DNA of 64,000 nucleotides from contig JBBRSP010000006.1 of NCBI GenBank assembly GCA_038245295.1, positions 160,001-224,000 on the forward strand. Direction: 5' to 3'. Below, piece by piece: positions 4,421 to 51,704 of this stretch. The stretch comes from Candidatus Binatia bacterium. Lineage in GTDB: Bacteria; Desulfobacterota; Binatia; HRBIN30. The notes under the pieces were generated by a model. The model had not been told where the DNA came from. It did not search any database and saw only the letters and a program-made list of their open reading frames with translations. The position numbers and the translations under genes were made by a program. Each line of letters starts with the position of its first letter. Position 1 is the first letter of the stretch.

Positions 4421-4495
4421 CGCAGGCTAAAGCCTGCGCCTACCGGTTCGATTCCACCTGCATAGGAGCTTGGTAGGCGCAGGCTTTAGCCTGCG
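4421..4495. repeat. Inverted pair of GTAG-type REP palindromes
   Basis: CGCAGGCTAAAGCCTGCGCCTACC (4421-4444) and its exact reverse complement (4472-4495). Confidence 0.8.
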
Positions 4496-11885: not shown

Positions 11886-12260
11886 GGGGGCGCACTGGTT
11901 TCGACGGGGGTCTGGAAGGTTGCGGTTGCGTGCATGGGATCCTGGGTACCATTCAAAACCCCAGGGCTGCTTAACTGCAGACAATAATTTCGCACTCGCT
12001 GCTTAAGAGCAACGACGTTTCACCGGTCCGAGCCTGTAGGCCTGGCTGAAGCGACGCAAATCAGGATAAGCGGTGACCGGTGCTCGGGGGTCACTGACGA
12101 AAAATCACGAGCTGGCTCAACGGAATCTTGCCGTAAAAGCCCTCCATAGCCTCGGCGACGGAGGGTGGGAGTCCGGTGAGTAAGATTAAATCACGGAACT
12201 ACGCACGTAGACACTGTAGCTAACCGCCTTCGGACGGGGGTTCGATTCCCCCCGCCTCCA
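11886..12260 (+). ncRNA. ssrA: tmRNA, tag peptide (A)DNNFALAA
   Basis: 5' GGGGGCG pairs with 3' CGCCTCC-A (G3:U). T-arm GGGGGTTCGATTCCCCC. Tag frame GCA GAC AAT AAT TTC GCA CTC GCT GCT TAA. CCA not encoded. Confidence 0.96.
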
Positions 12261-13604
12261 TTTCCCTAACCCCTTAACTCTCTTGGGGTTTCTCTCATCC
12301 GAATGCCCCTTGGGGCCTATTTCGGGGCCTATTGTCTCGGGTTGGTCCTGCCCAAGGAAGTTCATCAACGATCGGCCATGCCCGCGACGCAGGCCCGGCA
12401 TCCAGTTGCGATAGTGACGGAAGATCATCTCTTCGGAGGTGCCGCACACCTGCGCAATCCAACCCGGGTCTTCGCCGGCGGACAAGGCCAGCGTGATGAA
12501 CGTGTCGCGGATATTGTACTGACCCCGGCCAATGACGCCGATGCTCGAAAGCGTGGGATGCCAGACGCGTTTGGCGAGCCATTCTTGCGAGAGCGGGCGA
12601 CCTTGCGAGTCCGTAAACACGTAGCCATGTAGTCCGTGGTCCAGACTGTCTTGGCGGCGGCGTTCCAACATCTCGAACAGTGCTGGATCGTAATCACACA
12701 CGACCTCGCGCTCTCCTGTCTTTGGCGCGGCTTCGAGGCCACCCAGTCGCGGCGAGCGTCCCTGGCGCAGCTCGACCACCTGACGCGCCGGAGACAACCA
12801 ATCGAAACGGAGTGCGACAATTTCGTTCGACCTCCATCCGGTGCGGAACCACATGTAGTACAGATCGCGGAGGGTCTGGCCACTCACGAACGCTTTGCCG
12901 CGCATGTCCACTTGTGGCGGCAGGTAATTGAGGAACTGTTGCACTTCCTCGACCGCCAGCGGCTTGCTCTGTTTCCGCAGATGCTTCGTGAACCGTCTGG
13001 CGCTCGCAAGCTTCGGCACCGGGTTGCTTGCGATGAGCTGTTCCTCGACCGCATCCTGCATCGCCTTGTGCAGGAGTCCCATGTGGTTGAGCACGGTCTT
13101 ACCGCTCAGCTTCGCATCCGTAAGCGAACGCTTGAAGTCCAAGCACGCCGAGGATGTGATCTCGGAGACCAACAACTCAGCCATGCGAAACTTCGGGTTC
13201 TTGAGCCACGCCTTGATGACCGAGCCCTCGTGCAACCATGTTGTCGGATGCAGATCCGCTTCAGGCATCAGCGTATTGTCCGGCCGAAATGGTGAACGAC
13301 GGGCGTACCATTTCTCGAACCACGCTCGCAGCGTGAGCTGCTTTCCGTGAGTTCCCACGCCGCCCGTAGGATAGAAGACACAGAGTTTCGTCCCGTTTGG
13401 GAACCAGGCCCTATAGTCAAACCGCTCGGCCTCGATCTCGGCATTGATCAGCTGAAGATGCACCGTCCACTTCTTCCGATACTCGGCAGTGTCGGGATCG
13501 GTGATGTACTCCTTGCAGCGTACGCCGCGCCACGTAAAGCTGAGGTAGAGATGACCGTGCTTTGCCCCGACGCCACTGCGGTTGCGGCGAACCCCTCTAG
13601 CCAT
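12186..13604 (-). CDS. Tyrosine integrase of the ssrA-inserted island
   Basis: Arm-binding N-terminus LYLSFTWRGVRCKEY; TGWRSNE, PKTG, YNIRDTF, FRHY. The C-terminus overlaps the ssrA 3' end. Confidence 0.92.
   Translation of the reverse strand: MARGVRRNRSGVGAKHGHLYLSFTWRGVRCKEYITDPDTAEYRKKWTVHLQLINAEIEAERFDYRAWFPNGTKLCVFYPTGGVGTHGKQLTLRAWFEKWYARRSPFRPDNTLMPEADLHPTTWLHEGSVIKAWLKNPKFRMAELLVSEITSSACLDFKRSLTDAKLSGKTVLNHMGLLHKAMQDAVEEQLIASNPVPKLASARRFTKHLRKQSKPLAVEEVQQFLNYLPPQVDMRGKAFVSGQTLRDLYYMWFRTGWRSNEIVALRFDWLSPARQVVELRQGRSPRLGGLEAAPKTGEREVVCDYDPALFEMLERRRQDSLDHGLHGYVFTDSQGRPLSQEWLAKRVWHPTLSSIGVIGRGQYNIRDTFITLALSAGEDPGWIAQVCGTSEEMIFRHYRNWMPGLRRGHGRSLMNFLGQDQPETIGPEIGPKGHSDERNPKRVKGLGKWRRGESNPRPKAVSYSVYVRSSVI
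12312..12333. repeat. Putative integrase arm-type sites
   Basis: Direct repeat GGGGCCTATT at 12312-12321 and 12324-12333, about 50 bp from the att core. Confidence 0.55.
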
Positions 13605-14052
13605 GGCTTCGCCCTCGGCGATGAAACGGCGCAACAGTTGTCGACGGCGCTGACGGTTCAGGTGTCTGCCGTAGCCACGCCTGGATCGCTGACCAGAAGA
13701 ACAGCAACTTCCTTCCCTTTCGCGCATAGTGCTCTCCTTGGCGAAGCTGGCCCGAAGAGACGATGGCGCGAAGCGTGCTCTCGCCCAACTTGATGCGTTC
13801 TGCCAGCTCGGCCAGCGTGAGGCACTCGTCAGGCCCAGACTGCGGCGTCGCGTTCAGGAGACGCGCCGCAAGTAAAGTCTGGATTGTCGCAAGCTCGGTC
13901 ATGAGCACTGGAATAGTCTCTCTCGATGCGTCCGTCACCACATCTTTCAGCGATTCAAGAAAGCTGGCGCTGATCGCTCCGCCGGTACGCGGATTGTCGC
14001 GCTGCGAGTCTGCGGAAGCGTCGGAGCTATGTGGTCGGATTGTCGAGTTCAT
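13597..14052 (-). CDS. Excisionase-like HTH protein
   Basis: LTLAELAERIKLGESTLR...G.HY.RKGRKLLF, overlaps the integrase start. Confidence 0.75.
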   Translation of the reverse strand: MNSTIRPHSSDASADSQRDNPRTGGAISASFLESLKDVVTDASRETIPVLMTELATIQTLLAARLLNATPQSGPDECLTLAELAERIKLGESTLRAIVSSGQLRQGEHYARKGRKLLFFWSAIQAWLRQTPEPSAPSTTVAPFHRRGRSHG

Positions 14053-14960
14053 CGGGATGGTGAGGGCAATAGCCGCGCATCGGGCGGACCTTTGCCCCTT
14101 GTGCTGCGGACGTTTTCTCCCGGCGTCCCTTCCTTACTGTAGGGAAGTCCGGCGAGCTCTCGTAAGGAATGCGGCACCGCGCTCGCGGCCGCTCGCCAGA
14201 TCGCTCCCGTGGGGTCGCTCGTCACATCGTGCAGCGAGGCAAACCACACCGGGAGGGACGCGCGCACGTGAGCCACTCGCGCCCGGTAGCGTTCAAGCCA
14301 GACGGGATCGTGTCCAACGACGAGGACGATTTCCGGTGTGTCGCTCGGCTGCCAGTGGCTCGCCGTATAGCCGTATACCTTCTTCAAGAACCGCTGCGGT
14401 GTTCTCGTCTGATGTTCGACCTCGAGAGCGAACGTTGCGTGGACCTGATCGTCCCAGCCTACATCGAAGTGCGCGTCGGGAACGATTCGTCGAAGGCGCG
14501 GCGTGCGCAGTTCCCAGTCAGACCGCCACGACAGGATCGCTCCGCCGGTTGCATCGAGCCCCCGCGCCAGGTGCACGCGGACCGTGTTGATCGCGAGGAG
14601 GTGCTCCAGGTTTCGGTCGAGGCCCCGTGGGACGCGGTAGCGCTCATCGGCCGCTCCTTCATTTGCGAGAACCAGTCGTCCCGAGTTCGCTAGACTATAG
14701 ACGTTGTCTCCCGAGAGGCTGCGTACCCACACGCGCACAAGGCCTGCGTTGAGCAATCGGCGCAGGCACTTGTTCGTCGCGGATCGCGTGCCGAAGCACA
14801 TGGTCTGGATCTGCGTCGTTGTGAGGAAGCGCATCTTCGCCAGTGCTTCGAGGAGCCACTGATCACGATCGGTCAGGCGCACACGCGCCGCGTTTGCTCG
14901 CTTGAGTGTGCGGCGAGTGCGGCAGCACTTTGACAGCAAAGCAATCGGTGTCTCGATCAT
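14049..14960 (-). CDS. Replication-relaxation family protein
   Basis: wHTH RLTDRD...RFLTTTQI, EHLLAIN, VPDA, FALEVE; ATGA overlaps at both ends. Confidence 0.82.
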   Translation of the reverse strand: MIETPIALLSKCCRTRRTLKRANAARVRLTDRDQWLLEALAKMRFLTTTQIQTMCFGTRSATNKCLRRLLNAGLVRVWVRSLSGDNVYSLANSGRLVLANEGAADERYRVPRGLDRNLEHLLAINTVRVHLARGLDATGGAILSWRSDWELRTPRLRRIVPDAHFDVGWDDQVHATFALEVEHQTRTPQRFLKKVYGYTASHWQPSDTPEIVLVVGHDPVWLERYRARVAHVRASLPVWFASLHDVTSDPTGAIWRAAASAVPHSLRELAGLPYSKEGTPGENVRSTRGKGPPDARLLPSPSR

Positions 14961-15280
14961 ACGCTCTGCACCGGGTTCTTGAGACCAACCCCGCATACCT
15001 GGCACGGAATGAAGGGCGGAGCGGCGCCGCAGACGGCGCAGCGCGTGAACGCAAAGCCATCAAACACGTATCGACAACGCCCGCATTCGAAACGACCGAC
15101 CAGACTAACTGGCGAACCGCATCCGAAGCAGGGCAACGCGTCCCGACGGGTCAGCACAACCGCGCCAGCGAGTTGCTTGGTCCAGCGGTAAAGACGACTC
15201 GCCACGCCGAATGGTAGCAGCACCGCCCAAAGGGCGAGCCGGATGGTCAGCAAGAGCGAGCGGAACATCAGATCTTCCAT
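14957..15280 (-). CDS. Membrane-anchored zinc-ribbon protein
   Basis: Hydrophobic N-terminus and four CxxC pairs; TGATG and ATGA coupling to neighbours. Confidence 0.7.
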   Translation of the reverse strand: MEDLMFRSLLLTIRLALWAVLLPFGVASRLYRWTKQLAGAVVLTRRDALPCFGCGSPVSLVGRFECGRCRYVFDGFAFTRCAVCGAAPPFIPCQVCGVGLKNPVQSV

Positions 15281-16887
15281 CAGCCGAGTCGTGGCCTTCC
15301 CCGCCGAGTTGGCGGAACGGGCTCTTGAGACACGACGACGATCGGCGGCCGAACAAGTTCCCGGAGGCGAGCTTTCCGCGCGGTGAGTTGGCGACGCAAC
15401 ACTTCTCTCGGGACGGCGAAACCGCCGTGGTCGATCCCCTGTTCCCTGATGAACGCGTCGAGCCGGTTCGCGGAGATCCCGATCCGCTCGTGTGGGGGCA
15501 CGAAGTCCGCGACTCGAACTTGGACTGCACGGTATGGTTTGCGACGATCGTACCAGTAGCACATGCGGTTCGGCAGCCGCTGTAGTTTCTCCATCAAGTG
15601 ACGGCGCATTTCGCTGCGACTGGGAACCTCCCCTGAGCGGCGCAGGGCGCTTCCCACCATTTCCGGGTCGACGTCGGGAAGGAAGTCACCGAAGAATTCG
15701 GCGTTCCGCCCCGACGTCCGAAACAGCGCCATGAGGTCGCAGTTCGCAAGCATCGTCTCCCGGAGCGCCGGCGGCACTTGCGAGAAGTTGTGCATGACGA
15801 GTGCCAGGTGCACACCGAAGCTCCGAAGCGTCGTGAGTGCCGTCGCGAAGCGGTCGGCCAGCGCCGGGGCGGCGAGCAGGTGGAAGAATTCATCGAGGAC
15901 GACGAGGTACGGACGATGTTTGCCTTCCGAGGCATAGGCCGCCTGGAACAACAGCTGAAGCAGCAGGCTGCCGAGCAAAGCCACCACCTCTTCTGGAATG
16001 CCGGCACCTTTGCCGAGAAATACGAGCAAAGGATCACCTCGTGAGATGACGTCGCTCAGATCGATGAGATCGTCCGCCCCGAGCATGAGGCGGACGTTCT
16101 CGGCGAGCAGCAATGCCTGCAGCCGAGCGGTGAGCGCATGCTTCGACGTCTCCGGGAGAATCGCGTACGTCCGAAAGAAGAACTCCTTCAGGCGTTGGTC
16201 CGCCGACCGCTCGACGAGCACACCGCGCAGCACGTCATCTTCCAGGACGGCAGGCGCCTCGACGAGCGACAGACCGGCCTCGGTGAGGAGCATCACCAAG
16301 TGACGGAGGATGTTCTCCATATGAATACTAAGCGAGGCCTCAAAGAGACGCGCGAATGCCAGGGTGACGTCGTAGGCCTGCACTTCGGCCGTCGATCCGG
16401 ATGGTACCCGGCAGATGTTCAAAGGCGGCAGCGCATCGCTGAATGGGTTGATGATCGCGAGTCGCTCAATGAAGGTGGTGCGATCCCCTGGGTTCATCTC
16501 CCACGCGATTGCGGCAGCTGACTGCAACACCATGTGAAAGAATCCCGACTTGCAATCGACGACGCCGATCGGTCGTCGTACCGAGAGTGCCCAGTCGACG
16601 CACGACGTAACGAAGGTCGTCTTGCCAGTACCGGTCCCACCCTGAACGAGCCAGTGCGCGGCGAAATCATCCGGGCTGAGTCGTAGACGCACCATTTTAC
16701 CGGCCGCGTCGCCCGCCGTGCCAATCTGCAGCGCAAGCTCTTTATCCTGACTAGTTGTAACAAAAGCGTCGTAGTCACCGACGGCTTCGCGAAACACCCG
16801 GGCGCTCGCCCTTGCCACCTCGGCTCGTGCCTTCTGGCGATCACGCGCATGGCCGCGCGCGACTTGAATCCAACGCTCAAGTGCCAT
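15280..16887 (-). CDS. VirD4/TraG/HerA-like coupling ATPase
   Basis: Walker A GGTGTGKT, Walker B VVLDEF, LRSFGVHLALVMH. Confidence 0.82.
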   Translation of the reverse strand: MALERWIQVARGHARDRQKARAEVARASARVFREAVGDYDAFVTTSQDKELALQIGTAGDAAGKMVRLRLSPDDFAAHWLVQGGTGTGKTTFVTSCVDWALSVRRPIGVVDCKSGFFHMVLQSAAAIAWEMNPGDRTTFIERLAIINPFSDALPPLNICRVPSGSTAEVQAYDVTLAFARLFEASLSIHMENILRHLVMLLTEAGLSLVEAPAVLEDDVLRGVLVERSADQRLKEFFFRTYAILPETSKHALTARLQALLLAENVRLMLGADDLIDLSDVISRGDPLLVFLGKGAGIPEEVVALLGSLLLQLLFQAAYASEGKHRPYLVVLDEFFHLLAAPALADRFATALTTLRSFGVHLALVMHNFSQVPPALRETMLANCDLMALFRTSGRNAEFFGDFLPDVDPEMVGSALRRSGEVPSRSEMRRHLMEKLQRLPNRMCYWYDRRKPYRAVQVRVADFVPPHERIGISANRLDAFIREQGIDHGGFAVPREVLRRQLTARKARLRELVRPPIVVVSQEPVPPTRRGRPRLG

Positions 16888-16895
16888 CTCGATCC

Positions 16896-17186
16896 TCAGT
16901 GGTCGCGCTGCTCATGTCGCCGTTCGGCAATCCCCGCCGGCCGACGCACCGGTGGAATGCGGAGCGGCTGTTCATCCTCGATCTCCACATGCCCATGCCG
17001 CCGTATGGTCATCCCCGCACCCAGGCATACCGCTACGATTCCCACGAGCAAGAGCCACGGCAGCACGACACTGATGACTAGAACGATTGCCTGGAAGGCG
17101 CAGCACATGAGCGGCTGCACGATGAGCAGCGCCACCACAAGCTCGACCAGCGTGTCCATCGATGCCCGGCCGCGCTCATCGTTCAT
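16896..17186 (-). CDS. Small membrane protein
   Basis: Two hydrophobic segments; ATGA overlap with the E1 gene. Confidence 0.65.
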   Translation of the reverse strand: MNDERGRASMDTLVELVVALLIVQPLMCCAFQAIVLVISVVLPWLLLVGIVAVCLGAGMTIRRHGHVEIEDEQPLRIPPVRRPAGIAERRHEQRDH

Positions 17187-18625
17187 CCGGAGGCGCCTTC
17201 CGCGTGGCCGACATCATCCAGACCAGGGATGACCGGTGGTAACTCACTCCTGCTCATGCGGTTCGGGCGCCAGGTCGGAACAAGATCACCCAGACCCAGC
17301 CGTCCTTCTGCGCTGCAGTGCAAACACCCCTTTGTTTCCGGCACGGTGATTGAGAAGATCTCCCCTTCGAGTTCGCGATAGACGAGGTACGGCCGCGGGT
17401 TCCGGTAGGGGGCGACGAGGTTGTGCAGCTCTGCCACAGCAAGCGAGGCCACCACACCGTTTAGGTGGTACACCGCGGGCGCAGCTACTCCGGTCAAGTA
17501 TCCGCGTTGCGTCAGAAGCGCCCGCTCCTCTGGTCGTGCCAGATCTTGTGCTGCACGCGTCGCGTCAAGCACACCTGCGCAGAGCAGGCACCACGCTCCC
17601 AGGGGCGGCACCACGACTTCGCCGCTGATATCGTCAAAGCGTCCGTCGTCGCCCACGCTGAGGTTGACCCCAGCGTGCAGAATCGGAATCAGATATTGCG
17701 CGGCCAAGGCGTTGAGCACGAGACGGGAAGCATCGTTGTCCGTGGCAGCGATCAAGACATCGCAACCACTGAGCGCCCTGAGCGAGCGCTCCGTGAACAC
17801 GGTACAACGCAGCGCCTTGATTTCCGCATCGTCGTCGATGCTGCGAATGTTTCGCGCCGCCACATCGACCTTGGCGATTTCTTCGGTCGCATCGGAGAGC
17901 GTGGTCGCGAGCAGTCGATTGAGGTTGCTGACTTCGACAATGTCCGGATCGACCAGCACCCAATCCCGCACCCCGAGTCGGGTGAGCTCCTCAACAATGA
18001 CACTGCCAATGCCACCCACGCCGACAATTCCCACGCGCAGCGCTCGCATCCGCGCCTGAAACCCTCTCCCAAAAGCGCCGATCTGCCGATCGAACCGAGC
18101 GGCGTCGACCGCTGACAAGCCCGCATCCCCATCGAACATCAGCATCGCTCCATCGAAGGACGGCGACGGAATTCGAACCGGCCTCGCTTCGTCATCGCGC
18201 ACCTCCCAAATGCGTGTGGCTGTGCTCGATGGATTGACGACGACCGAACCGTAAACCGTTTCAGGCAGGCGCTCCGCGAGGTAGGCAGCCATTACGAGTT
18301 CGTTTTGATCATCGATACACGAGAAATCGACGTGCGGGCCGTCACCGGGGTGCGAGTGGAAGTCGACCTGCGACAAACCCTCTTGGGCGGCCAGTTGCAG
18401 GACGTGCTGCTGCACCTCGGGTCGCAGGGTCAGACCGCCCGCCGATTGATGACTGAATGCCTCAGGCGGCATGAGTACGAGGTGACGTCCCAGAAGCCTC
18501 AGTTGTGTGCCTGTGCGGTGCAGGCCGCAGAGTACGATAGCCATTTGCTCACGCTCTCGATCGTGGAGCAGGTGCGTGCGGAGTTCTCCTCCCATGGTTG
18601 GTGGAAGGACGATTCGATAGTTCAT
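17183..18625 (-). CDS. JAB peptidase fused to ThiF/E1 adenylating enzyme
   Basis: JAB motif E...HSHP...FS..D; E1 motifs GVGGIG, DPD.VE.SNLNR, TDN..SR and two CxxC. Confidence 0.88.
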   Translation of the reverse strand: MNYRIVLPPTMGGELRTHLLHDREREQMAIVLCGLHRTGTQLRLLGRHLVLMPPEAFSHQSAGGLTLRPEVQQHVLQLAAQEGLSQVDFHSHPGDGPHVDFSCIDDQNELVMAAYLAERLPETVYGSVVVNPSSTATRIWEVRDDEARPVRIPSPSFDGAMLMFDGDAGLSAVDAARFDRQIGAFGRGFQARMRALRVGIVGVGGIGSVIVEELTRLGVRDWVLVDPDIVEVSNLNRLLATTLSDATEEIAKVDVAARNIRSIDDDAEIKALRCTVFTERSLRALSGCDVLIAATDNDASRLVLNALAAQYLIPILHAGVNLSVGDDGRFDDISGEVVVPPLGAWCLLCAGVLDATRAAQDLARPEERALLTQRGYLTGVAAPAVYHLNGVVASLAVAELHNLVAPYRNPRPYLVYRELEGEIFSITVPETKGCLHCSAEGRLGLGDLVPTWRPNRMSRSELPPVIPGLDDVGHAEGASG

Positions 18626-18636
18626 GACGGATGTCC

Positions 18637-19188
18637 TCAATTGTCGTTGGTCAACACGTCGCGCACGAGCGACAAGAAGGTCCACAGATTGTCGGAATCG
18701 CGGAAGTCGGCCGATGGCTGCCAACCGCCATCGTCAGGAGCCTTCGGCCAGACGCAATACCAGTGCCAACCTGCTGCCAGAAGATCGGGCGCACCATGAA
18801 ATGCGGAGCTGGTGAGATGTGGATCACCCCCGCCGTCGGCCAGAGGAAATTTCCTGTCGAGATAGAAACCGAGTGGCGGTGAGATCGGGTAGGTCTGTGG
18901 GAACACGACTAAGAGCTGCGCCCAGCGGTGCTGCCAGCGTTCCGGGAGCGCGAACTGTTGGATGCGAAGCCAATCGCCGTTCGCTTCGTCGAAGTCGACG
19001 CCACCGCGATCGCTGAAACGCGGCGCGATCATCAGGACCTCGTTCTGAATGCGCGTTGTGCGATCGTCGAACCCCGAGGGGCCAACGGCAGCCCGGCGCG
19101 CTGGCGCTCTGTCGGGCGTCACGTCGATCGCCGTATCATGGCCGTCTGGTATGAACAGTGCCTCAAGGACTCGGACGAATGTGCTCAT
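18637..19188 (-). CDS. Prokaryotic E2/UBC-fold protein
   Basis: WLRIQQFALPERW, LLVVFPQTYPISPPLGFY, WHWYC; lies between the Ubl and E1 genes. Confidence 0.8.
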   Translation of the reverse strand: MSTFVRVLEALFIPDGHDTAIDVTPDRAPARRAAVGPSGFDDRTTRIQNEVLMIAPRFSDRGGVDFDEANGDWLRIQQFALPERWQHRWAQLLVVFPQTYPISPPLGFYLDRKFPLADGGGDPHLTSSAFHGAPDLLAAGWHWYCVWPKAPDDGGWQPSADFRDSDNLWTFLSLVRDVLTNDN

Positions 19189-19412
19189 GAAAACCTCCCC
19201 CTGGCCTGCCCTTTGACCCGCGCCGGCGCATCGAGAAATACGTCCCCGTCGTTGATCGGAACTCTGCTGCCCTTCGGGATCATGAAGTTGCCTTCTCGCG
19301 TTCGGCGCATGAGATTGCGCTTGCCGTCGATGTTGCCGATCCGACGGATATCCGCATCGGAGGCTGACTCCGGCAAATTCACCTGACGACCGTTGATGAT
19401 TGCTGCTGCCAT
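19185..19412 (-). CDS. Ubiquitin-like (beta-grasp) protein, 75 aa
   Basis: IINGRQVNL...INDGDVF.DAP.RVKG; RBS AAGGGAG; ATGA overlap with E2. Confidence 0.7.
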   Translation of the reverse strand: MAAAIINGRQVNLPESASDADIRRIGNIDGKRNLMRRTREGNFMIPKGSRVPINDGDVFLDAPARVKGQARGRFS

Positions 19413-19452
19413 TTTGTGTTCTCCCTTTTTGTGTTGTGCTGCTGTTGAAGGA

Positions 19453-19662
19453 CTATCGGTTCCGCCCGCGGCGCTTCGGCGCGCCGCCGAAGAGTTGCTT
19501 GGCAACCTCATGGCCCAGCCCGCCAAGCTGTCGCGTCGCTTCGCCCTTGAAGCCTCGCAGTTGCCACTCGGCCTCGCGGCCAAAGCCGCGGAGCTGCCGA
19601 CTCGCTTCACGACGGATTTGGCGAACGAGCCCGCTCCGTCTGTCATCGCCTCGCTTTGCCAT
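19453..19662 (-). CDS. 69-aa basic protein with 11-aa repeats
   Basis: RBS GAGGAGG; repeats REASRQLRGFG / REAEWQLRGFK / GEATRQLGGLG / HEVAKQLFGG. Confidence 0.65.
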   Translation of the reverse strand: MAKRGDDRRSGLVRQIRREASRQLRGFGREAEWQLRGFKGEATRQLGGLGHEVAKQLFGGAPKRRGRNR

Positions 19663-19808
19663 TCTTGTCCTCCTCTCTTGTTTTTTGATCGGTCATGGCT
19701 CGCGTCGAAGCGCCGTACAGAACGCCTCACGTGTGACCGGATCCTAGAGCGGATTGAGAAAAGGGGTACGGTAACGACGGGGCTACGGAGAGGGATACTG
19801 AGGATAGG

Positions 19809-20678
19809 TCAAACGACCGCGAGGACGCGGCAGATTTGGCGAACGACGTCGGTGGCAATCGCGCTTTGGGCGTGCAGCAACTGGGACTCGGAGAAAGGGT
19901 AAGAGCTGGCCCACAGGACTTCTTGTTTCTTTGTGTCGGTCAACTCGACGTCGAGTCGAGCGACATCACCGTGCGCGCGAAGGATACCGATGAGCACGGC
20001 ACAGACTTCGTCGGCGCGAACGTCGCGCTGTCGGTTCTCAGCTTTACTGTGAGCTGCAATCTCGAGAACAGTGGCCAGATCCGCAGAAACAACTCGCAGT
20101 CCGCGGACGCTGGAAAGCTGCGCGAGAATGGTCGCACGAAAGCCGCCGGCCAAATCTGCGCCGAGTCGTTCACCTGTGGCCGCTTGGAATGCAGGCATGA
20201 GTAGACAGTGGTTGAACGAGACGCCAGCCGACTCGGCCCGCACGAGCTCGCGCCAGTCCACTCGCCACCCGACCCGCACGCTCAACACGTCGGCAAGTTT
20301 TACCAGCGAGCCACTCGTCGCTCGACCCCCGCTGCGCCACTTCTTGATCGTGCCTTCCGAAAGAAGCCGGCTCTCGAGCGCCAGTCCAGGTTCGTAGAGG
20401 TCGATGATTTTCAAGCCGGCCTGTCGGCAGAGCGTCTTGAGCTTGGGGTAGTCAACGGAGTAGCCGCGGCGATGCTCATCGTTTGCTGTTGTGGTGGCAC
20501 GCGATATCGCGCGCCCTCCGCCGCTCTTACCTTGTCGTGGTCGTGAAGATCGGGCAAGACGTCGTGTAGCCGCTCCCACCACGGTGGTTACTGGCGATAC
20601 CGGATCAGGAGCGACGAACCCTCGCGTTTCGTGCCGACGCTGCGCCGGCTCGGCTCCTTCTGATGCACGACGGTTCAT
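19809..20678 (-). CDS. HTH-like plus TolB-N-like domain protein (start uncertain)
   Basis: LSEGTIKKWRSG...SLVKLADVL; LAQLSSVRGLRVVS...LDVELTD....VLWASSY. Confidence 0.6.
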   Translation of the reverse strand: MNRRASEGAEPAQRRHETRGFVAPDPVSPVTTVVGAATRRLARSSRPRQGKSGGGRAISRATTTANDEHRRGYSVDYPKLKTLCRQAGLKIIDLYEPGLALESRLLSEGTIKKWRSGGRATSGSLVKLADVLSVRVGWRVDWRELVRAESAGVSFNHCLLMPAFQAATGERLGADLAGGFRATILAQLSSVRGLRVVSADLATVLEIAAHSKAENRQRDVRADEVCAVLIGILRAHGDVARLDVELTDTKKQEVLWASSYPFSESQLLHAQSAIATDVVRQICRVLAVV

Positions 20679-21763
20679 TGCCTGGCCTCCTTCCGAGGGC
20701 GAGTACTTTGACGGCGAGACGTTTGTCTCCTCGTGGAGGATTTTGGGGTCTTTCCTCTAGGTGACGAGACAGGGGCGATATGAGGGGCCTTCGGAACATC
20801 GCCAACGTCTGGAACCGCGGCGATTTCATCTATGCTCGACGGCGGTAGCAAGGTGACCTCTTCCTTAATGCCAGGACGCAGCCGTTCGGCGAGTTGCAAC
20901 CTGCGGCGAAACCATATGCGGTAGTCGGCTGACGACGCTCGCGGTATCGCGTCCACGCCACTCGCGACGAGCCACCCGTGGGCAGCTGCGAGTGTGGCAT
21001 TGAACTCCTCGATCAGTCCGTCGACCGGATCGTGTCGATCCAGCGGAAAGCCGCTCGTCTCGATTTCTTGCAGCAGCTCATCGCCAATCGGCAACAGGCG
21101 GTGAGTTGCGAATTGGACGAACCGGAGGGGCTCACCCACGGCGTGTGGGAGCAAGTATGAAACGAGTCGGAAATTCGCGTCGACAGCGTGCGGGACTTCA
21201 CCTAGCGCGAGCGCTGTCAGATAGTGGTAGCGACGACATTCGTTCCACAGGAGAAACGCATAGGCGGCCTGCTCGTTCGGCAAGAGCCCTTGAATTAGTA
21301 CGCCAGCCGCCGCCAACCGAAGAGCGGATTGGAGGTGGCGATCCAGTTGATCGCTGTACGCGACGACAACGATCCTTCTCTCCGGAAAAAACAGGGCGCC
21401 CATGCGCTCGGCTTCCTTTAGCGATCGCACAATTAGTTTGGATGGACCCATCCACGTCCACAAGCGATAGCGGCGATCACGGGTTTCAAAGAGGAGCGGA
21501 AGGTAGCGCACCTTCCGCGTCGAGCGCTGTTCGAGACGTCGCTCCTGTCGCAGAGCCTCTAGGCCGATCTTTCCGCCACCGTGAGCGCGGACAAATTCCG
21601 ACCGGTAGACTTTCTTGTACGCCGCCGAGTGACGCCGTCCCAAGCCGCGTTTAGTCACAAGCCTCTTCCTCTTCCTCTTCTCACCGCTTTCTGTTGATAC
21701 CGGTCGGCGCGCTTCACGGGGTGAGGCGGGCGGTGGGTTATGTTTGTTGTCGTCCATCGTCAT
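20675..21763 (-). CDS. Hypothetical protein
   Basis: 362-aa ORF with basic termini, stop coupled to the next gene. Confidence 0.5.
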   Translation of the reverse strand: MTMDDNKHNPPPASPREARRPVSTESGEKRKRKRLVTKRGLGRRHSAAYKKVYRSEFVRAHGGGKIGLEALRQERRLEQRSTRKVRYLPLLFETRDRRYRLWTWMGPSKLIVRSLKEAERMGALFFPERRIVVVAYSDQLDRHLQSALRLAAAGVLIQGLLPNEQAAYAFLLWNECRRYHYLTALALGEVPHAVDANFRLVSYLLPHAVGEPLRFVQFATHRLLPIGDELLQEIETSGFPLDRHDPVDGLIEEFNATLAAAHGWLVASGVDAIPRASSADYRIWFRRRLQLAERLRPGIKEEVTLLPPSSIDEIAAVPDVGDVPKAPHIAPVSSPRGKTPKSSTRRQTSRRQSTRPRKEARQ

Positions 21764-21941
21764 TCAGGGAAGCCGTCGAGTGCTTCACCATTCCTCTACT
21801 CGACAAACTACAGCACGCGCGCATCGCGTTCGACGGCCAGAACCGGTTGGACCGACACAACGCGACCCTTGTCGGCGTGACGAAACAAGCGGCGCTACAG
21901 GTCTTCCTGAAGCGCCGCTTTCGTATTGCTGCCCAAGGTCG

Positions 21942-22484
21942 TCACCTCCGCGATGCAGGGTGTCGTATGGGGAGGGAATGGTTGCCGTCAGCTGAATAGT
22001 AGTAAGTAAGGGCGAAAGAGACGGCATCGAAAATCGCCATCCGTTGGTCCTCGCTCATCCAGAGCTTGCGAATCGGCGGCACCGATACCGCTAAGGCAGG
22101 GAGATGTTCCGCAACGGTGCGGGCCATCCGGTCTTTGTTCGGTCGCTCTTCCCCTTTGAACATCTCGCGGACTTCCCGCGCCGAGACGATGTGAAGGTCA
22201 AGGCCAAGGTGGATGACGAGCCGCGAGATTCCTCGAATCAAGGCACGCGCGCGTCGTCGACGCCGACAGCTTGAGTCCGCGCAATTCTCAACGATGACGA
22301 TGTCCGGTTGGTACTGCTGAATGAGCTGGGTCACCTTCTGGAGTGCCACTCGTCGCGTACCACCACGGCTTCGACTCAGACCCCAATCTACAAGGTCACC
22401 CGGGCCTTCAAGGATTGCATACCCAAAACCACGCGAGAACGGATCCACCCCTAAGACCCGGCGCGTCATGCGCTCGCGTCTCAT
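21942..22484 (-). CDS. RuvC/RNase H-fold nuclease
   Basis: VLGVDP..RGFGYAIL, PDIVIVE, FDAVSFAL. Confidence 0.72.
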   Translation of the reverse strand: MRRERMTRRVLGVDPFSRGFGYAILEGPGDLVDWGLSRSRGGTRRVALQKVTQLIQQYQPDIVIVENCADSSCRRRRRARALIRGISRLVIHLGLDLHIVSAREVREMFKGEERPNKDRMARTVAEHLPALAVSVPPIRKLWMSEDQRMAIFDAVSFALTYYYSADGNHSLPIRHPASRR

Positions 22485-22846
22485 ACCGATGCATCGTTAT
22501 CGGTCTGATGCGCTCCTGCTGCGTTGGCGATCGCCGAAAGCGTCTCCAGTTTGCGCTGGTGTAGCGGACCGCCATGGCTGGTGGACAGACGTTGCACGAG
22601 CGCGTGCACACGTTGAATGACGTCGCTCGTGGCCCGCTCATGTGCGCCCGCAAAGAGCCGCTCCAGCGGTAGACGAAAAATGATGGCGCACGCAAACATC
22701 GTGGCGACGTTTGGGTGGCGTACGAATCGCTCGTAGCGCGATACTTTGCTGCCATGTTGGCAGCCGAGCAGGAAGGAAACCTCAGCCTGAGACAGGCCTG
22801 CCTCCCTCCGCGCTGCCCGAATGTAGTTCGGGAGCTTCTGAGGCAT
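22481..22846 (-). CDS. XRE-family HTH regulator
   Basis: IRAARREAGLSQAEVS...VSRYE...P. Confidence 0.85.
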   Translation of the reverse strand: MPQKLPNYIRAARREAGLSQAEVSFLLGCQHGSKVSRYERFVRHPNVATMFACAIIFRLPLERLFAGAHERATSDVIQRVHALVQRLSTSHGGPLHQRKLETLSAIANAAGAHQTDNDASV

Positions 22847-22982
22847 AGGTTCTACTTTTAGAAACTGTCGCCGCAGGGATGCGGCGACAAATGAATAATC
22901 TTTTCATTGTACGATGGCCGCCAGCCTTGTTGGAGGATATCCGTTGTGCCGTCAGCGGCAACTTGCAACGAGAGCCTGAACG

Positions 22983-23014
22983 AAAAAGAAGGCAAGCGGG
23001 GATGCTTGCCTTCT
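22983..23014 (-). terminator. Intrinsic terminator after the DUF932 gene
   Basis: 11-bp stem AGAAGGCAAGC/GCTTGCCTTCT followed by a U-run on the minus strand. Confidence 0.75.
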
Positions 23015-23019
23015 GTGCT

Positions 23020-23961
23020 TTAGTTGAGCGCCGCAGTCAGGAGCGATCCGCCGAAGCGTTCCATCTCGATGCGTCGCAGCGGTGCCAATGTTTGGGCCGC
23101 TCCGGTAAAGGCGTTGATGATCCCGAACCGATTCGCCTCGGGGTCGCCAATGTAGCGTGCCATGATTTCATCGGTGAGCTTCTGGCTCATCTTGCGCTCT
23201 TCGGCGATATTCCGGATGACGTCGAACGGATCAGCGATGGGCTCCTCCCTGGTCTTCAGGAATGCGTCGAGCACCTGGCTTGCTACCACGAAGCCGTCGC
23301 CAATCGCCTCGGCCATGCGGCGGGTGAGTTCGTTTGCCGTGAAGTGGATGTGCGCGTGCCGAAAGGCTTTCTCCTCGGCCACCACCAGGTCGTTCGTGCA
23401 TGCTTTGCGGAACACGAACGGCTCGACCGACACGCTTCCCATGCCGACCTCGGAATTGCCAATCATGATGCCAGCCTTCAGGCCACTGGTGGGCTCGACC
23501 AACTCCTCGGAGACGATCTTTAAGAAGCAGTGGGTCTCTTCGAGCACAAACGACTTGATCCGAAGGGTGTCGCTTCTGAGCAGCTCTTCCACCGTCTCGG
23601 CGATCTGCCGGTTGTCGAAAGCGACGTACTCGCCGGAGAGGAAGGCGCGCACGTGAGCGGCTTTGCCGCGCAAGAGAAAAGCTCGTTCACTCATTCGTGA
23701 GAAGTCGAAGTTCGCTACCTTGGCTCTCATGTCGTTCGGCAGCCGCCGGTAGTACGCCACCGGGATACTGAGGCGTTCGCACATTTGACTCGTTGCGAGA
23801 TCCGAGAGCGTCAAAGATTCCGGCGCAGGTCCTCCATTCTTCGCCAAGAGATCGCCGCGCTCACCGATCCAGAGCTGCGGGGTGGGCATCTTGCGATCCC
23901 ATTTTCCGACGTCGTCAGCGGAGATCCGCGTGGCAACGTCATTCCAGGTTACTCGGTCCAT
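23020..23961 (-). CDS. DUF932-like protein
   Basis: QMCERLSIPVAYY, RAFLSGEY..FDN, GIMIGNSEVG.GS, CTN; RBS AAGGAGG. Confidence 0.75.
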   Translation of the reverse strand: MDRVTWNDVATRISADDVGKWDRKMPTPQLWIGERGDLLAKNGGPAPESLTLSDLATSQMCERLSIPVAYYRRLPNDMRAKVANFDFSRMSERAFLLRGKAAHVRAFLSGEYVAFDNRQIAETVEELLRSDTLRIKSFVLEETHCFLKIVSEELVEPTSGLKAGIMIGNSEVGMGSVSVEPFVFRKACTNDLVVAEEKAFRHAHIHFTANELTRRMAEAIGDGFVVASQVLDAFLKTREEPIADPFDVIRNIAEERKMSQKLTDEIMARYIGDPEANRFGIINAFTGAAQTLAPLRRIEMERFGGSLLTAALN

Positions 23962-24283
23962 TGTTCTTTCCTCCTTTATTTGAACGATCTGGAGGGAAGC
24001 GTACGGCGAACGATGGATGCGTTGAAGAATGGTCCTTTTGCCGCTCGGGATCATGCCGCTTCTCTTGGCAAGTGAGGAGGTTGAGACACGAAGAGACAGG
24101 GAATTCTCGGCTGCTCACTTGTTGTCCTGTTGAACGGACATCCGCGTCTGAACCGTCCGCCTGGGCAGACAAGCCGTGCTGCGCCCTTGTCCATCAAACA
24201 ATAACCGCCACCGAACTACACAGGCGTAATTCTTGCTTCTAACGGAAGTCAAATTCTGGCTCGAATTAAAGGGGGCAAATTAA

Positions 24284-24766
24284 ATGTGGGCAAGACTGGC
24301 AGCGGTTATCTACTTCTTCTTGTCGCAAATCGGCGGGGGCGGGAGCCTACCTGCACAGAGCGGCATCGTCCTGAGCTGTGCGGGCGCCACGTGCACCCCG
24401 ACATCTACGCGCACACGAACGCCAACACGGACCCGGACACCGACCCCAACATGCACGGAAACACCGACGCCGATCGCAGAACCGGTGGTACACGCTGACA
24501 TCGCGTGCTGGAAAACAGGCGTTCAGTGCTACGCCTGCAACCGGGGCCCGGACGACGCAACGATTCACGGTTTCGTTACGCCCGCGACAATGCCGGCGAG
24601 CCCCGACTTCTCGATCTCGTGTGGCAGTACGCTTTTCGTTTGGGCGGCGGATGGCGCCTCGGATCCGGCATCTGTCACCTGCCTCGTTTCAGTGGTGGGG
24701 AATGGACCGAAGAACATCAGTTGCGGAACGGTGCCGGTATCCTCCTGCGACTGTCTTGCGCCGTGA
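24284..24766 (+). CDS. Secreted Cys-rich protein with Pro/Thr repeats
   Basis: Signal-like N-terminus, TPTRTRTPTPT linker, RBS AAGGGGG. Confidence 0.6.
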   Translation: MWARLAAVIYFFLSQIGGGGSLPAQSGIVLSCAGATCTPTSTRTRTPTRTRTPTPTCTETPTPIAEPVVHADIACWKTGVQCYACNRGPDDATIHGFVTPATMPASPDFSISCGSTLFVWAADGASDPASVTCLVSVVGNGPKNISCGTVPVSSCDCLAP

Positions 24767-27688: not shown

Positions 27689-27916
27689 ATGGCGGTTGAA
27701 CGACGCGAACTGACTTCGCTCCGTCATCTCCTCACCCTAGGAGAGGTGGCGGAGTTTCTGCGCATCTCAAAAACCAGCGTCTATCGGCTCGTCGATCGGC
27801 GCGAACTTTCCTGCTGCCGTGTCGGTCGCAGCCTCAGGTTCACGATCCACGATGTAGATACCTACTTGCGTAGTCAACGCATCGGACCAACTGCCGCTGA
27901 TCAAGACAACCTATGA
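27689..27916 (+). CDS. Excisionase-like HTH protein
   Basis: LLTLGEVAEFLRISKTSVYRL...RVGRSLRF. Confidence 0.85.
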   Translation: MAVERRELTSLRHLLTLGEVAEFLRISKTSVYRLVDRRELSCCRVGRSLRFTIHDVDTYLRSQRIGPTAADQDNL

Positions 27917-29100
27917 GCGCACGGAAAATAGGACACTCCTGGTGGGTGGATTTCCGACACGCTCACCAGAGAATTAGAAAACGAAGTCCAGACAACAGTC
28001 GCGCTGGCGCTGCGGTATTCGAGGCGACGCTGCGCGGTCGCTTGGCTCGCGGAGAACCGCTGTTTCCAGCGGTGCACCGACCCCAGCCAAAGCCGCGCTT
28101 CGAAGTGTTCGCCTGGCACTGGTACGACGTCTATGTGAAGACCAACAACAAGCCGTCCGAGCAGCGGACGAAGCGAATAGTCCTCCGAAGGCACCTCGTA
28201 CCGTGTTTTGGGAAGTCCGCTCTCGACGCGATCACGGCGCTCCACATCGAGCAATTCAAGGCGTCGCAACTTAAGTCGGGCCTTGCCCCAAAGACTGTCA
28301 ACAACTCCCTAGCGATCCTTGGAAAATGCCTTCGAACCGCAGAAGAATGGGGCGAGGTTGTTCGCATGCCCAAGATCAAGCCGTTGCAGGTGCCGCCGCA
28401 GAAGTTCGACTTCCTGTCGGTCGAAGAAGCGAATCGGCTCATCCGCGCAGGGAACGATCCTCAGTGGCGAGCGATGGTCGTAGTCGCACTTCGAACCGGT
28501 CTCCGGCTCGGCGAGCTACTCGCGCTCGATTGGACAGATATCGATCTGGAAGCCTCGAGACTCACGGTACGGCGGTCGGTCTTCGGGAACCAGTTCGTTT
28601 CGCCGAAGAGCAACCGCATCCGGCACATTCCGCTCACAGATCAGACGCTACGGGTGCTCTGCGCGATCAAACAACCGGCCGGTCTTGTTTTCAAGCGCCG
28701 CGGTCCCGGACCTCTGAATCGTAAGACCCCAGCAAGAGTGATTTCGCTCCTTTGCACCGCAGCGGGCATTCGCCAAATCGGATGGCACGTCCTCCGACAT
28801 ACATTCGCCAGTCACCTGGCGATGGGCGGCGTTAGCATGAAGGCAATTCAGGAACTGCTTGGCCATTCAGACATTCGAACGACGATGCGCTACGCCCATC
28901 TGACTCCATCGATACTGCAGGACGCAGTGCGCGTTCTCGAGTCCGAGCCGACGCCAGCGGACACGCTTGTTGGGCAACCGGCGGGCAACGCTTTTGTAGC
29001 CGCCGTGGAGGACAAACAAAAACACCCCAGTATACGGGGCGTTTCTGCGGAATTTGTTGGCTCGGGAGGTGGGATTCGAAACGCCGGGCACGACGTTTGA
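27913..29100 (+). CDS. Tyrosine integrase (second)
   Basis: TGLRLGE, PKS, HVLRHTFASH, LLGHSD...TMRY. Confidence 0.95.
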   Translation: MSARKIGHSWWVDFRHAHQRIRKRSPDNSRAGAAVFEATLRGRLARGEPLFPAVHRPQPKPRFEVFAWHWYDVYVKTNNKPSEQRTKRIVLRRHLVPCFGKSALDAITALHIEQFKASQLKSGLAPKTVNNSLAILGKCLRTAEEWGEVVRMPKIKPLQVPPQKFDFLSVEEANRLIRAGNDPQWRAMVVVALRTGLRLGELLALDWTDIDLEASRLTVRRSVFGNQFVSPKSNRIRHIPLTDQTLRVLCAIKQPAGLVFKRRGPGPLNRKTPARVISLLCTAAGIRQIGWHVLRHTFASHLAMGGVSMKAIQELLGHSDIRTTMRYAHLTPSILQDAVRVLESEPTPADTLVGQPAGNAFVAAVEDKQKHPSIRGVSAEFVGSGGGIRNAGHDV

Positions 29101-49849: not shown

Positions 49850-50656
49850 TCACGGGGCTAGAACTTTGACCAAGGTCCGCTCGGCAAGAGCTTCGTCGCC
49901 AAGGCACACGGGCAGGTAGTCGCAGTAGCTGCACCAGCGGCCGGGACGACGATAGAATCGCTCGGCCGTGATTTCTTGAGCGACATATCCGGCCTTCGCG
50001 ATGTATCGGGTGAGATCGGCCGGTTCACGGCGACTGAGGTGCCATTCGATTTTGGGTTGAGTCGTTTTCACGAGGACACAGAGCGCCGTTTGGGTCGCAT
50101 CGGGCTCCGCGAGTTGATACGCGGTCAGTTGATCGGACAACGCGGCTTCAAACGGGGGGTACGTTGTGGCTGAAGTCTTGAAGTCGAGGACGGTTCGTTG
50201 GCCGTCGACATCGGCGACGAGATCGATGATGCCAACAAGTTTGAGCGAGAGACTGGTCACCGTCACGGTAAACGGTCGTTCCACGGCCCTGACCGTCGTG
50301 ATGCGGCCGACATCCGTGCGCGCGAACTGTTCCATGAGGGTGACGCCGATGGCGAGGAGCTTGTCCCAAGACTCGCGGTCTTTGTAGCGAACCGGAGCTT
50401 GTCGGATCGCGTTCCACTGCGTACGGAAGGTGACCACCGGATCCTCGCCGCCCCGAAACAACGCCTCGAGGGCAGCGTGCACGATCTTGCCGAACACCAA
50501 ACTCGCGTCTGGCACCCGGCGCCGCAGATTCTCGTGATAATACAGCCGATATTGCTCGGGGCAGTGCAGATATCGGCTGACGCGCGAATGGGAGAGATGA
50601 GGCGCCTGTTTTGAAACGCCTCCATTCTGTGTCCGTTCTTGCTCTGGTGCGTCCAC
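49850..50656 (-). CDS. PD-(D/E)XK nuclease (AddB/Cas4-like, Fe-S)
   Basis: SHSRVSRYLHCP, G.IVH, GIIDLV, LDFKT, QLTAY, WCSYCDYLPVC. Confidence 0.88.
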   Translation of the reverse strand: MDAPEQERTQNGGVSKQAPHLSHSRVSRYLHCPEQYRLYYHENLRRRVPDASLVFGKIVHAALEALFRGGEDPVVTFRTQWNAIRQAPVRYKDRESWDKLLAIGVTLMEQFARTDVGRITTVRAVERPFTVTVTSLSLKLVGIIDLVADVDGQRTVLDFKTSATTYPPFEAALSDQLTAYQLAEPDATQTALCVLVKTTQPKIEWHLSRREPADLTRYIAKAGYVAQEITAERFYRRPGRWCSYCDYLPVCLGDEALAERTLVKVLAP

Positions 50657-50658
50657 GG

Positions 50659-51555: not shown

Positions 51556-51704
51556 TTCTCTTCCTCCTTCTGAAATTGGTTGGTGTGAAAGAACTGAGAG
51601 GAAGTGTGCGGCGGACAGACGAACACCCGTAGGATGGCAGTAGTGCCGCTTGCGGCAATCGTCAGATCCTTCGTGGACGGTGCCGAGTCGCCGACAATGA
51701 GGGG

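Follow-up and report, generated by a model that had tools for sequence, protein, structure and literature searches.

Type I Bub operons (6E.1, or DUF6527 operons) consist of BubAB, BubCD, and BubE (PMC11601596; 10.1101/2024.11.21.623966). They are reported in mobile elements at tRNA genes together with defence-type regulators, and the Bub proteins produce protein conjugates both in vitro and within cells (PMC11601596). The authors who described operon type 6e (Iyer, Burroughs and Aravind, 2006) speculated on a role in addiction or defence and noted carriage on conjugative elements (PMC1779556). Among mobile elements, the compact order of coupling protein, relaxase, excisionase, and integrase is typical of integrative mobilisable elements (PMC5357655). 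Here, we describe a locus in a 64,000-nt stretch of a Candidatus Binatia bacterium genome (assembly GCA_038245295.1, contig JBBRSP010000006.1, positions 160,001 to 224,000; hereafter “the window,” whose own positions are used throughout) in which both kinds of genes lie in one run. A conjugation cassette encoding a ubiquitin-like protein (Ubl), a ubiquitin-conjugating enzyme (E2), and a JAB peptidase fused to a ubiquitin-activating enzyme (E1; the fusion is hereafter JAB-E1) is followed by genes for an ATPase, a zinc ribbon protein, a predicted relaxase, an excisionase, and an integrase. The cassette, related to Type I Bub (6E) systems but distinct from them, is long resident in one family of integrative mobilisable elements and is also found without these elements.

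The ten genes run on the minus strand from 19662 to 12186, and in the list of open reading frames (ORFs) all neighbours overlap or are at most 40 nt apart (Table 1). Gaps of 40, 11, and 8 nt separate the repeat protein gene from the Ubl gene, the E2 gene from the JAB-E1 gene, and the gene for a protein with two predicted transmembrane (TM) helices (2-TM protein) from the ATPase gene, respectively. The Ubl/E2, JAB-E1/2-TM, and relaxase/excisionase junctions are ATGA overlaps, the ATPase/zinc ribbon junction is a TGATG overlap, and the zinc ribbon and relaxase genes overlap by 49 nt. A scan of positions 12000-24500 found 13 terminator-like sites against 10.1 expected and no strong one within the ten-gene stretch; the strongest on the minus strand (23014-22987) lies past a DUF932 gene, outside the stretch. 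Gene families were assigned by Pfam, PADLOC, NCBIfam, and PHROGs. The first-pass annotation, made from the sequence alone, had listed these ten genes in this order on one strand with gaps of 40 bp or less, which the ORFs and family matches confirm, and its placement of the conjugation set in the same operon as mobilisation and integration genes is borne out by the gene order and junctions. The best explanation is that the ten genes form a single, translationally coupled operon, part of a small integrative mobilisable element that is inserted at the 3′ end of a transfer-messenger RNA (tmRNA) gene.

The same arrangement recurs in relatives. A profile of the E2 retrieved 12 genome loci and 80 metagenome loci, all of which were scanned in six frames with hidden Markov models (HMMs) built from proteins of the window and the loci. 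The window and loci L001, L003, and L004 supplied the sequences for the ATPase, relaxase, and zinc ribbon HMMs, and these four match by construction. The close family consists of 52 loci including the window, and based on the criteria of a full JAB-E1 and at least 2.5 kb of downstream sequence, 23 rows are assessable; two pairs among these have identical E2s, leaving 21 distinct loci. The ATPase, relaxase, and zinc ribbon genes directly follow JAB-E1 in 10 of the 21 (the window, L001, L017, L032, L035, L003, L004, which equals L029, L024, L026, and L028), and another 10 encode none of the three. The linkage is not unique to this genome, as 9 further distinct loci of the 20 assessable carry it. 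The remaining locus, L002, has only an ATPase of 855 aa, located 3.4 kb from JAB-E1, and no relaxase. The region L002:11924-16798 encodes JAB-E1, a cold-shock domain/weak bacterial HORMA protein, DUF2637, two genes of unknown function, and an ATPase of the TraG-D_C type.

Three gene orders occur among the linked loci. In the window, L001, L017, and L003, the JAB-E1 stop codon overlaps the start codon of the gene that follows. The families in L001, L003, and L004 are confirmed by Pfam, as are the excisionase and the integrase at the end of the run in L001, L017, L024, and L028. The eight-gene block is kept in L001 and L017 at 43-70% identity (L001 by tblastn; in L017, 65% for the ATPase and 54% for the relaxase), and the integrases of these two loci have no detectable similarity to the tmRNA-adjacent integrase of the window. 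L029 also shares the primase, helicase, helix-turn-helix (HTH), and RuvC-like genes. E2 identity among the linked loci falls to about 48%, and the loci appear to belong to more than one phylum (Candidatus Binatia, Syntrophorhabdaceae, and others). In a quick, midpoint-rooted version of the JAB-E1 tree, for which the careful search is unfinished, every branch outside a well-supported clade of 21 rows carries the mobility linkage, with the Chloroflexota clade that lacks it nested within. The ATPase tree contains two types that follow two JAB-E1 groups. Judging from both trees and the recurring adjacency, the cassette and mobility halves have been inherited together for a long time and over deep divergence.

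In the converse survey, relatives of the relaxase (E ≤ 1e-5) were found in 5 of 401 genomes of the window's phylum, including the window's own, a sample too small to give the frequency of the mobility module without the cassette. The best other match is a remnant consisting of a frameshifted ATPase, relaxase, zinc ribbon, excisionase, and integrase fragment without Ubl genes, and in the remaining three genomes the Replic_Relax genes are distant and lie in different contexts. A second search of the phylum, centred on the genome of L003, returned the same contigs. In the remnant, L104 (G169:C16:9100-13200), the decayed mobility module lies between housekeeping genes, with the ATPase in four fragments and the relaxase frameshifted; the double zinc ribbon and an HTH_17 gene are retained, whereas the integrase is reduced to its N-terminal part. 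No Ubl, E2, or E1 genes are present in the 9 kb upstream of L104. Of the 401 genomes in the phylum sample, 1 encodes the E2, a pattern that fits an accessory, horizontally moved gene. Viral contigs contained no relatives of the E2, relaxase, or ATPase, and plasmids contained no relaxase match.

The JAB-E1 protein is most similar, among solved structures, to Citrobacter BubCD (8.1e-39; collinear over residues 36-442), and the alignment of homologues begins at Met34 of the longest ORF. In an alignment of 11 JAB-E1 sequences, the JAMM residues E59, H123, H125, S135, and D138 are invariant, as are the nucleotide-binding glycines, two CxxC pairs, and R407-G408-Y409. There are six invariant cysteines, including four in the CxxC pairs, C66 in the JAB domain, and C321. 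The “RGYLTGV” segment of the window protein aligns to “RGYITGV” of BubCD, which contains the catalytic tyrosine (PMC11601596), and based on a numbering offset of two residues, Tyr409 probably corresponds to the published Y370. The JAB-E1 frame of one relative (L012:2409-5594) runs into an enolase C-terminal-like domain, giving an ORF of 1061 aa that is either a real fusion or an artefact of assembly or frame.

The E2 has 70 homologues, and in an alignment of 24 sequences, D122, H124, and C145 are among the invariant columns, none of which is a serine or threonine, so that Cys145 is the only invariant nucleophile. The top fold match of the E2 model (AlphaFold; predicted local distance difference test score, pLDDT, of 73) is Citrobacter BubB (9eae_C, E = 3.5e-4), followed by classical E2s. 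Judging from spacing relative to the aligned PPxGFYL motif, Cys145 would lie within 2-5 residues of the position of BubB Ser333.

The Ubl is a single beta-grasp of 68 aa that ends at Gly68 and is followed by a seven-residue tail (QARGRFS). It is encoded as a separate ORF at every locus read. Gly68 is invariant in an alignment of 22 Ubl sequences, 14 of which end there while the other 8 have tails of 1 to 8 residues. Accordingly, the C-terminus is KG plus a variable tail rather than a free Gly-Gly end, and such variable tails after an invariant glycine are the pattern expected of a Ubl precursor that would require trimming. The sequence has no family match, and its model (pLDDT 89) is a beta-grasp with best fold matches to the multi-ubiquitin (Bub) proteins of Citrobacter and E. 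coli (TM-scores of 0.77 and 0.62), followed by ThiS. The JAMM residues, the E1 tyrosine motif, the E2 cysteine, and the beta-grasp with Gly68 are all conserved, and the Ubl/E2/JAB-E1 set, as listed earlier, is complete and apparently active.

The first gene of the operon encodes a repeat protein, in which an 11-residue unit, (R/G)EAxxQLRGFG, occurs four times in variant forms, and occupies the slot filled by a gene for an NYN ribonuclease (RNase) in most relatives. Its ORF is conserved in L001, whereas the DNA upstream of it is not, and therefore the peptide is a real small gene and not a frame artefact. A two-sequence HMM also detected it in L017, L019, and L020, limiting it to the small clade of the window. 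The repeat protein has no family in Pfam, NCBIfam, PADLOC, or PHROGs, and Atlas scores are at most 0.80.

The second half of the operon is a compact mobility module. The ATPase has invariant Walker A (GxxGxGKT) and Walker B (DE) motifs, and its Pfam matches to coupling proteins (TrwB_AAD_bind, TraG-D_C, and T4SS-DNA_transf) are all below the curated cut-off. It scores 27.9 bits against the VirD4-like NCBIfam model CD1115 (cut-off 250) and matches PADLOC mad8 (2.1e-15) and HerA models. When its profile was compared with the PDB, HerA, FtsK/EssC, TrwB, and DotL matched about equally and only around Walker A. The name “VirD4-like ATPase” given in the first-pass annotation thus holds at the level of the FtsK/HerA/TrwB superfamily but is too specific, and the protein is a candidate coupling protein. 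The 2-TM protein, encoded 8 nt before the ATPase, may anchor it in the membrane; the 2-TM protein is conserved in L001 and L017 and weakly in L032, L033, and L035. Homologues of the zinc ribbon in L003, L024, and L104 match Pfam DZR, all three below the cut-off. A role of the zinc ribbon as an E3-like adaptor was considered and dropped, as zinc ribbon genes go with the relaxase even where there are no Ubl genes (L104 and L106).

The PF13814 protein is a predicted MOB_C-type relaxase, with a score of 65.2 bits against a cut-off of 25.3. PF13814 corresponds to the MobC relaxase superfamily (PMC5357655), and the Replic_Relax family has the PD-(D/E)XK, restriction-endonuclease fold (PMC3424549). 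In the relaxase alignment, PD177 and E195 are invariant and D197 and K209 nearly so, forming a PD..ExD..K motif. The excisionase matches TIGR01764 (excise) at 5e-4, below the cut-off, as well as PHROG excisionase families. No mating-pore (type IV secretion) family was found among the 62 window ORFs scanned, and the element would therefore need a helper.

The integrase and the HTH_17 excisionase adjoin a tRNA-type site, the tmRNA 3′ end. The integrase stop codon at 12186 lies 75 nt inside the tmRNA gene and marks the left end of the span delimited in the first-pass annotation; the integrase ORF runs past the end of the element, and its last ~25 codons (12186-12260), lying on the strand complementary to the tmRNA 3′ end, are thus host sequence. 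The element extends from about 12.26 kb to about 27.6 kb, the right border not having been found and the latter value being unproven. Its upstream part includes the DUF932 gene and genes for an XRE-type HTH protein and a RuvC-like nuclease, the latter two of which recur upstream of the cassette in L004 and L029, as well as a primase and a helicase-like protein (Table 1).

Table 1. Features of the element and its integration site in the window.
Feature	Position	Strand	Evidence and properties
Repeat protein	19662-19453	-	69 aa, basic
Ubl precursor	19412-19185	-	75 aa
Stand-alone E2 (Prok-E2_E)	19188-18637	-	Pfam PF14462 7.8e-7
JAB-E1 fusion	18625-17183	-	Pfam ThiF 6.4e-35, Prok-JAB 6e-4
2-TM protein	17186-16896	-	96 aa; two predicted TM helices, judged by eye from hydrophobic runs
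P-loop ATPase, FtsK/HerA/TrwB superfamily	16887-15280	-	535 aa; no TM segment of its own
Membrane-anchored double zinc ribbon	15280-14957	-	one N-terminal TM helix, four CxxC motifs
Predicted MOB_C-type relaxase (Replic_Relax, PD-(D/E)XK fold)	15005-14049	-	Pfam PF13814 1.1e-17, above cut-off
Excisionase-type HTH protein	14052-13597	-	Pfam HTH_17 2.9e-6
Tyrosine integrase	13727 (or ATG at 13604) to 12186	-	Arm-DNA-bind_2 1.1e-12, Phage_int_SAM_5 4.9e-6, PHROG 1 integrase 2.2e-29
tmRNA gene (tag ADNNFALAA), integration site	11886..12260	+	ARAGORN
XRE-type HTH	22846-22481	-	Pfam HTH_3
RuvC-like nuclease	22484-21942	-	Pfam RuvC
Primase	27518-26439	-	Pfam Zn_ribbon_DnaG, Toprim; 51% identical to L029 gene upstream of cassette
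Helicase-like protein	26491-25094	-	58% identical to L029 gene upstream of cassette

Public DNA contigs from two runs of one study cover flank and element evenly, at a depth of about 13, and none of them joins across the element as an excision joint would. Loose contig ends at 12227-12260 are probably from the tmRNA genes of other organisms. A short and highly repetitive sequence with many rearranged contig joints (10328-10991) closely precedes the tmRNA gene; its summed contig depth in run X1 is about 887, compared to about 13 on both sides. A second excisionase and integrase pair is located right after the primase (27689-29100, plus strand), and this integrase is 28-31% identical to those of L001, L017, L024, and L028, to which it is closer than the tmRNA-adjacent integrase; the second pair suggests elements integrated in tandem. 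Further along, positions 49850-52970 encode a PD-(D/E)XK/Cas4-like protein, a 298-aa protein, and a second TrwB-like ATPase (TrwB_AAD_bind 8.5e-13, above the cut-off), a trio with 54%, 42%, and 61% identity to the one immediately upstream of the Ubl operon of L024. The island may thus contain pieces of two related elements or be a single element lengthened by insertions.

An NYN RNase gene is directly upstream of the Ubl gene in 8 of the 12 genome loci by Pfam and is widespread by HMM, and in L024 and L035 this place is taken by HTH or other small genes. Type III CRISPR-Cas genes (Cas6, RAMP, or Cmr3) adjoin 5 of the 12 genome loci (L005, L007, L009, L010, and L011), and it is the Chloroflexota relatives, composed of NYN, Ubl, E2, and JAB-E1, that lie beside them. 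In the window, the NYN gene is absent, and so are nearby CRISPR-Cas genes. The legend of Fig. 6D in PMC10910872 lists NYN, ThiS, and Prok-E2 among putative CRISPR auxiliary genes. In L005 and L011, the large RAMP-family proteins beside the NYN-Ubl cassette carry cold-shock (CSD) domains. In a distant E2 subfamily, 0 of 22 assessable rows have the ATPase, relaxase, or zinc ribbon. Members of this subfamily (L057-L096) encode, for example at L066:8522-12868, NYN, a 108-aa protein, a ThiS-like Ubl, a Prok-E2_E E2, an E1, and DUF6748. The subfamily keeps a WYC cysteine motif and is found on three cyanobacterial plasmids, the only plasmid records matched by the window E2 (33% identity over half its length). 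Because 10 of the 21 distinct loci lack the transfer proteins and type III CRISPR-Cas genes are the neighbours in 5 of the 12 genome loci, the activity of the cassette cannot depend on the transfer proteins.

We tentatively favour a reading in which the cassette is an element-borne conflict system that serves in defence against phages or rival elements, in exclusion, or in host addiction. In the proposed mechanism, the JAB domain would trim the seven-residue tail of the Ubl, exposing Gly68, which the E1 domain would adenylate before taking the Ubl onto Tyr409, the tyrosine of the Bub-type “RGY(L/I)TGV” motif. The Ubl would then pass to Cys145 of the E2 and from there to a lysine of a target. 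The coupling-ATPase/relaxase/excisionase/integrase module would borrow the mating pore of another element, and the cassette would be co-expressed with these transfer genes but would not act on them. This role is favoured over control of the element's own transfer because of the NYN and CRISPR company, the absence of mobility genes from half of the loci, and the ecology of Bub/6E systems.

Several points weigh against this reading. The clade of the window lacks NYN, the obvious candidate effector, and yet its Ubl, E2, and JAB-E1 genes stay joined to the mobility genes, which fits a mobility-directed role at least as well. The cargo of element hot spots usually changes more quickly than the backbone, but here the cassette is the better conserved part: compared with L003 and L004, JAB-E1 is 48-59% identical while the ATPase and relaxase are 20-26% and 24-33% identical. 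We know of no experiment that shows defence by any Bub-type system, and the authors of the Bub study found no phage protection (PMC11601596). PADLOC gave no match for the E2 or the Ubl, and its CBASS (cyclic oligonucleotide-based antiphage signalling system) E1-E2 models match only part of JAB-E1, the adenylation core. The equivalence of the E2 cysteine to the Bub serine and the relay from tyrosine to cysteine are inferred from alignment, spacing, and a model with a pLDDT of 73, and the JAB-E1 tree is provisional. As for the element itself, the tmRNA 3′ end has no second copy in the window at up to 3 mismatches in 25 nt that would serve as an att repeat, and exact matches of at least 11 nt occur only at 4445 and 55800 (11 nt, a length expected by chance), neither at a possible element end. 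The right border may be short, degenerate, or beyond the window.

The idea put forward in the first-pass annotation is that protein conjugation acts on the transfer machinery. The Ubl cascade would modify the ATPase, the 2-TM anchor, the zinc ribbon, the relaxase, the excisionase, the integrase, or a helper mating apparatus, and would thereby time or license excision and mobilisation. This idea draws on the overlaps between JAB-E1 and the next mobility gene in several lineages and on a linkage that survives three gene orders and two ATPase types. Moreover, an ATPase of the FtsK/HerA/TrwB type is the most constant downstream partner (11 of 11 distinct linked loci including L002), NYN is lost in the window's clade, where the operon fusion is tightest and the linkage is kept, and relaxase-anchored matches at E < 1e-20 are limited to the window, the genome of L003, and one decayed remnant. 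All of these observations concern gene neighbourhood, however, and NYN-Ubl-E2-E1 sets occur without mobility genes in 10 of the 21 distinct loci and all 22 rows of the distant subfamily. No fusion of a cassette protein to a mobility protein was found, and a search for longer or fused E2 relatives was empty, which is weak evidence. A full-text literature search, assessed by title and the start of the abstract, returned no report of a relaxase or coupling protein under ubiquitin-like control. The transfer reading is possible but rather unlikely. A more specific version, in which the cascade would be a built-in controller of horizontal DNA transfer that tags the coupling ATPase, the relaxosome, or the helper apparatus through an E1 tyrosine oxyester and then an E2 cysteine thioester, is somewhat more doubtful. 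To our knowledge, such a hybrid relay occurs in no characterised pathway.

It is improbable that the ATPase, the PD-(D/E)XK “relaxase,” and the zinc ribbon form an effector arm, with a HerA-like motor and a nuclease, so that the eight-gene block would be a single defence system. The matches of the ATPase to mad8 and HerA models, the equal fit of its profile to HerA and TrwB structures, the coupling-protein matches below cut-off, and the restriction-endonuclease fold of Replic_Relax (PMC3424549) are all consistent with such an arm. However, the block always ends with an excisionase and an integrase where the sequence allows (L001, L017, L024, L028, and the L104 remnant), its layout is exactly that of known mobilisable elements (PMC5357655), and the decayed L104 module exists without Ubl genes in the 9 kb upstream.

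Lower still stands the reading in which the beta-grasp protein would be only a sulfur carrier, or the E1 would modify a peptide such as the repeat protein, with no conjugates formed. The E1 domain scores well against the ThiF and MoeB models of NCBIfam (all far below the cut-offs), ThiS is among the fold matches of the Ubl, and a small repeat protein precedes the Ubl. A sulfur-carrier-only role is nevertheless unlikely because an E2 with an invariant cysteine and an intact JAMM peptidase are conserved at every locus and the Ubl ends in KG with variable, removable tails after the invariant glycine and not in a free GG. In addition, the scanned window ORFs include no thiamine, molybdopterin, or sulfurtransferase gene in the neighbourhood, the closest solved relatives form protein conjugates (PMC11601596), and the repeat protein is confined to the window's small clade, which makes this the least probable reading but one. 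Chance or recent hitch-hiking of the cassette in the window genome only, which the clear mobility of a cassette with an E2 in 1 of 401 phylum genomes might suggest, is already contradicted by the adjacency in other distinct loci of diverged E2s and more than one phylum and can be set aside.

The conflict and transfer readings differ in what they would mean. Bub/6E systems are proven conjugation machines, with their target and biological role open (PMC11601596), and the present cassette clade is joined to a transfer operon in about half of the distinct assessable loci, with candidate substrates encoded a few hundred bases away. The combination of an E1 tyrosine and an E2 cysteine appears to lie between cysteine-free Bub and canonical ubiquitination. 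Should the cascade act on the transfer machinery, it would be the first case of bacterial DNA transfer controlled by a ubiquitin-like system; should it serve in defence, it would add a new and compact system carried by elements, in which the upstream gene (NYN RNase, repeat protein, or HTH) can be exchanged.

Among known systems, sulfur carriers of the ThiS/MoaD type have a free Gly-Gly end, a sulfurtransferase, and cofactor genes and no E2 or peptidase, whereas the window has a KG end with tails together with an E2 and a JAB domain. The cassette shares with type II CBASS Cap2/Cap3 and with Bil the E1, E2, and JAB chemistry of bacterial conflict systems. Cap2 is an E2-E1 fusion that conjugates a cyclase, with no Ubl, and in Bil the JAB stands apart from the E1, which has two domains and a catalytic cysteine. 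For the mobility half, CloDF13 MobB/MobC is a close known system beside IME_Class_8. As in IME_Class_8, there is a compact gene order, a relaxase of the same superfamily, a candidate ATPase of coupling type encoded by the element itself, and no mating pore; unlike IME_Class_8, the integrase is of the tyrosine and not the serine type, and the ATPase is no recognisable VirD4 and has no TM segment of its own (PMC5357655). The window also adds the double zinc ribbon membrane protein and the upstream Ubl cassette. The CRISPR-linked NYN/ThiS/Prok-E2 module (PMC10910872) resembles the Chloroflexota relatives, assuming from the figure legend that it is the same family, and differs from the window, where NYN and nearby CRISPR-Cas genes are absent. 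Operon type 6e (PMC1779556) likewise combines a Ubl, an E2-like protein, and a JAB-E1 and has a sporadic, mobile distribution. However, its E2-like protein was called inactive or RWD-like, its Ubl is mostly a tandem poly-Ubl, its extra gene is the “metal-binding protein Y,” and the passages on 6e mention no linkage to a relaxase or coupling ATPase.

The closest resemblance is to Type I Bub. In both, the JAB domain is fused to the N-terminus of the E1 in one ORF, the “RGY(I/L)TGV” tyrosine on the crossover loop of the E1 is conserved, and the E1 has no catalytic cysteine. The predicted E2 fold is nearest to BubB and the Ubl fold to the Bub multi-ubiquitin proteins, the Ubl would need C-terminal trimming, and the location is a mobile element at a tRNA-like gene. 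On the other hand, DUF6527 (BubE, PF20137) was found in no ORF set scanned, where greedy length-based picking of ORFs could miss a small gene. The Ubl and E2 are separate genes with a single beta-grasp, unlike the Ubl-E2 fusion BubAB, and whereas the Bub E2 has a catalytic serine with histidine and aspartate and no cysteine, the E2 of the window has an invariant cysteine, no invariant serine, and no accompanying histidine at +2. Unlike Type I Bub, the cassette family (the window excepted) usually has an NYN RNase gene upstream, and the cassette shares one operon with the ATPase, relaxase, excisionase, and integrase of a mobilisable element.

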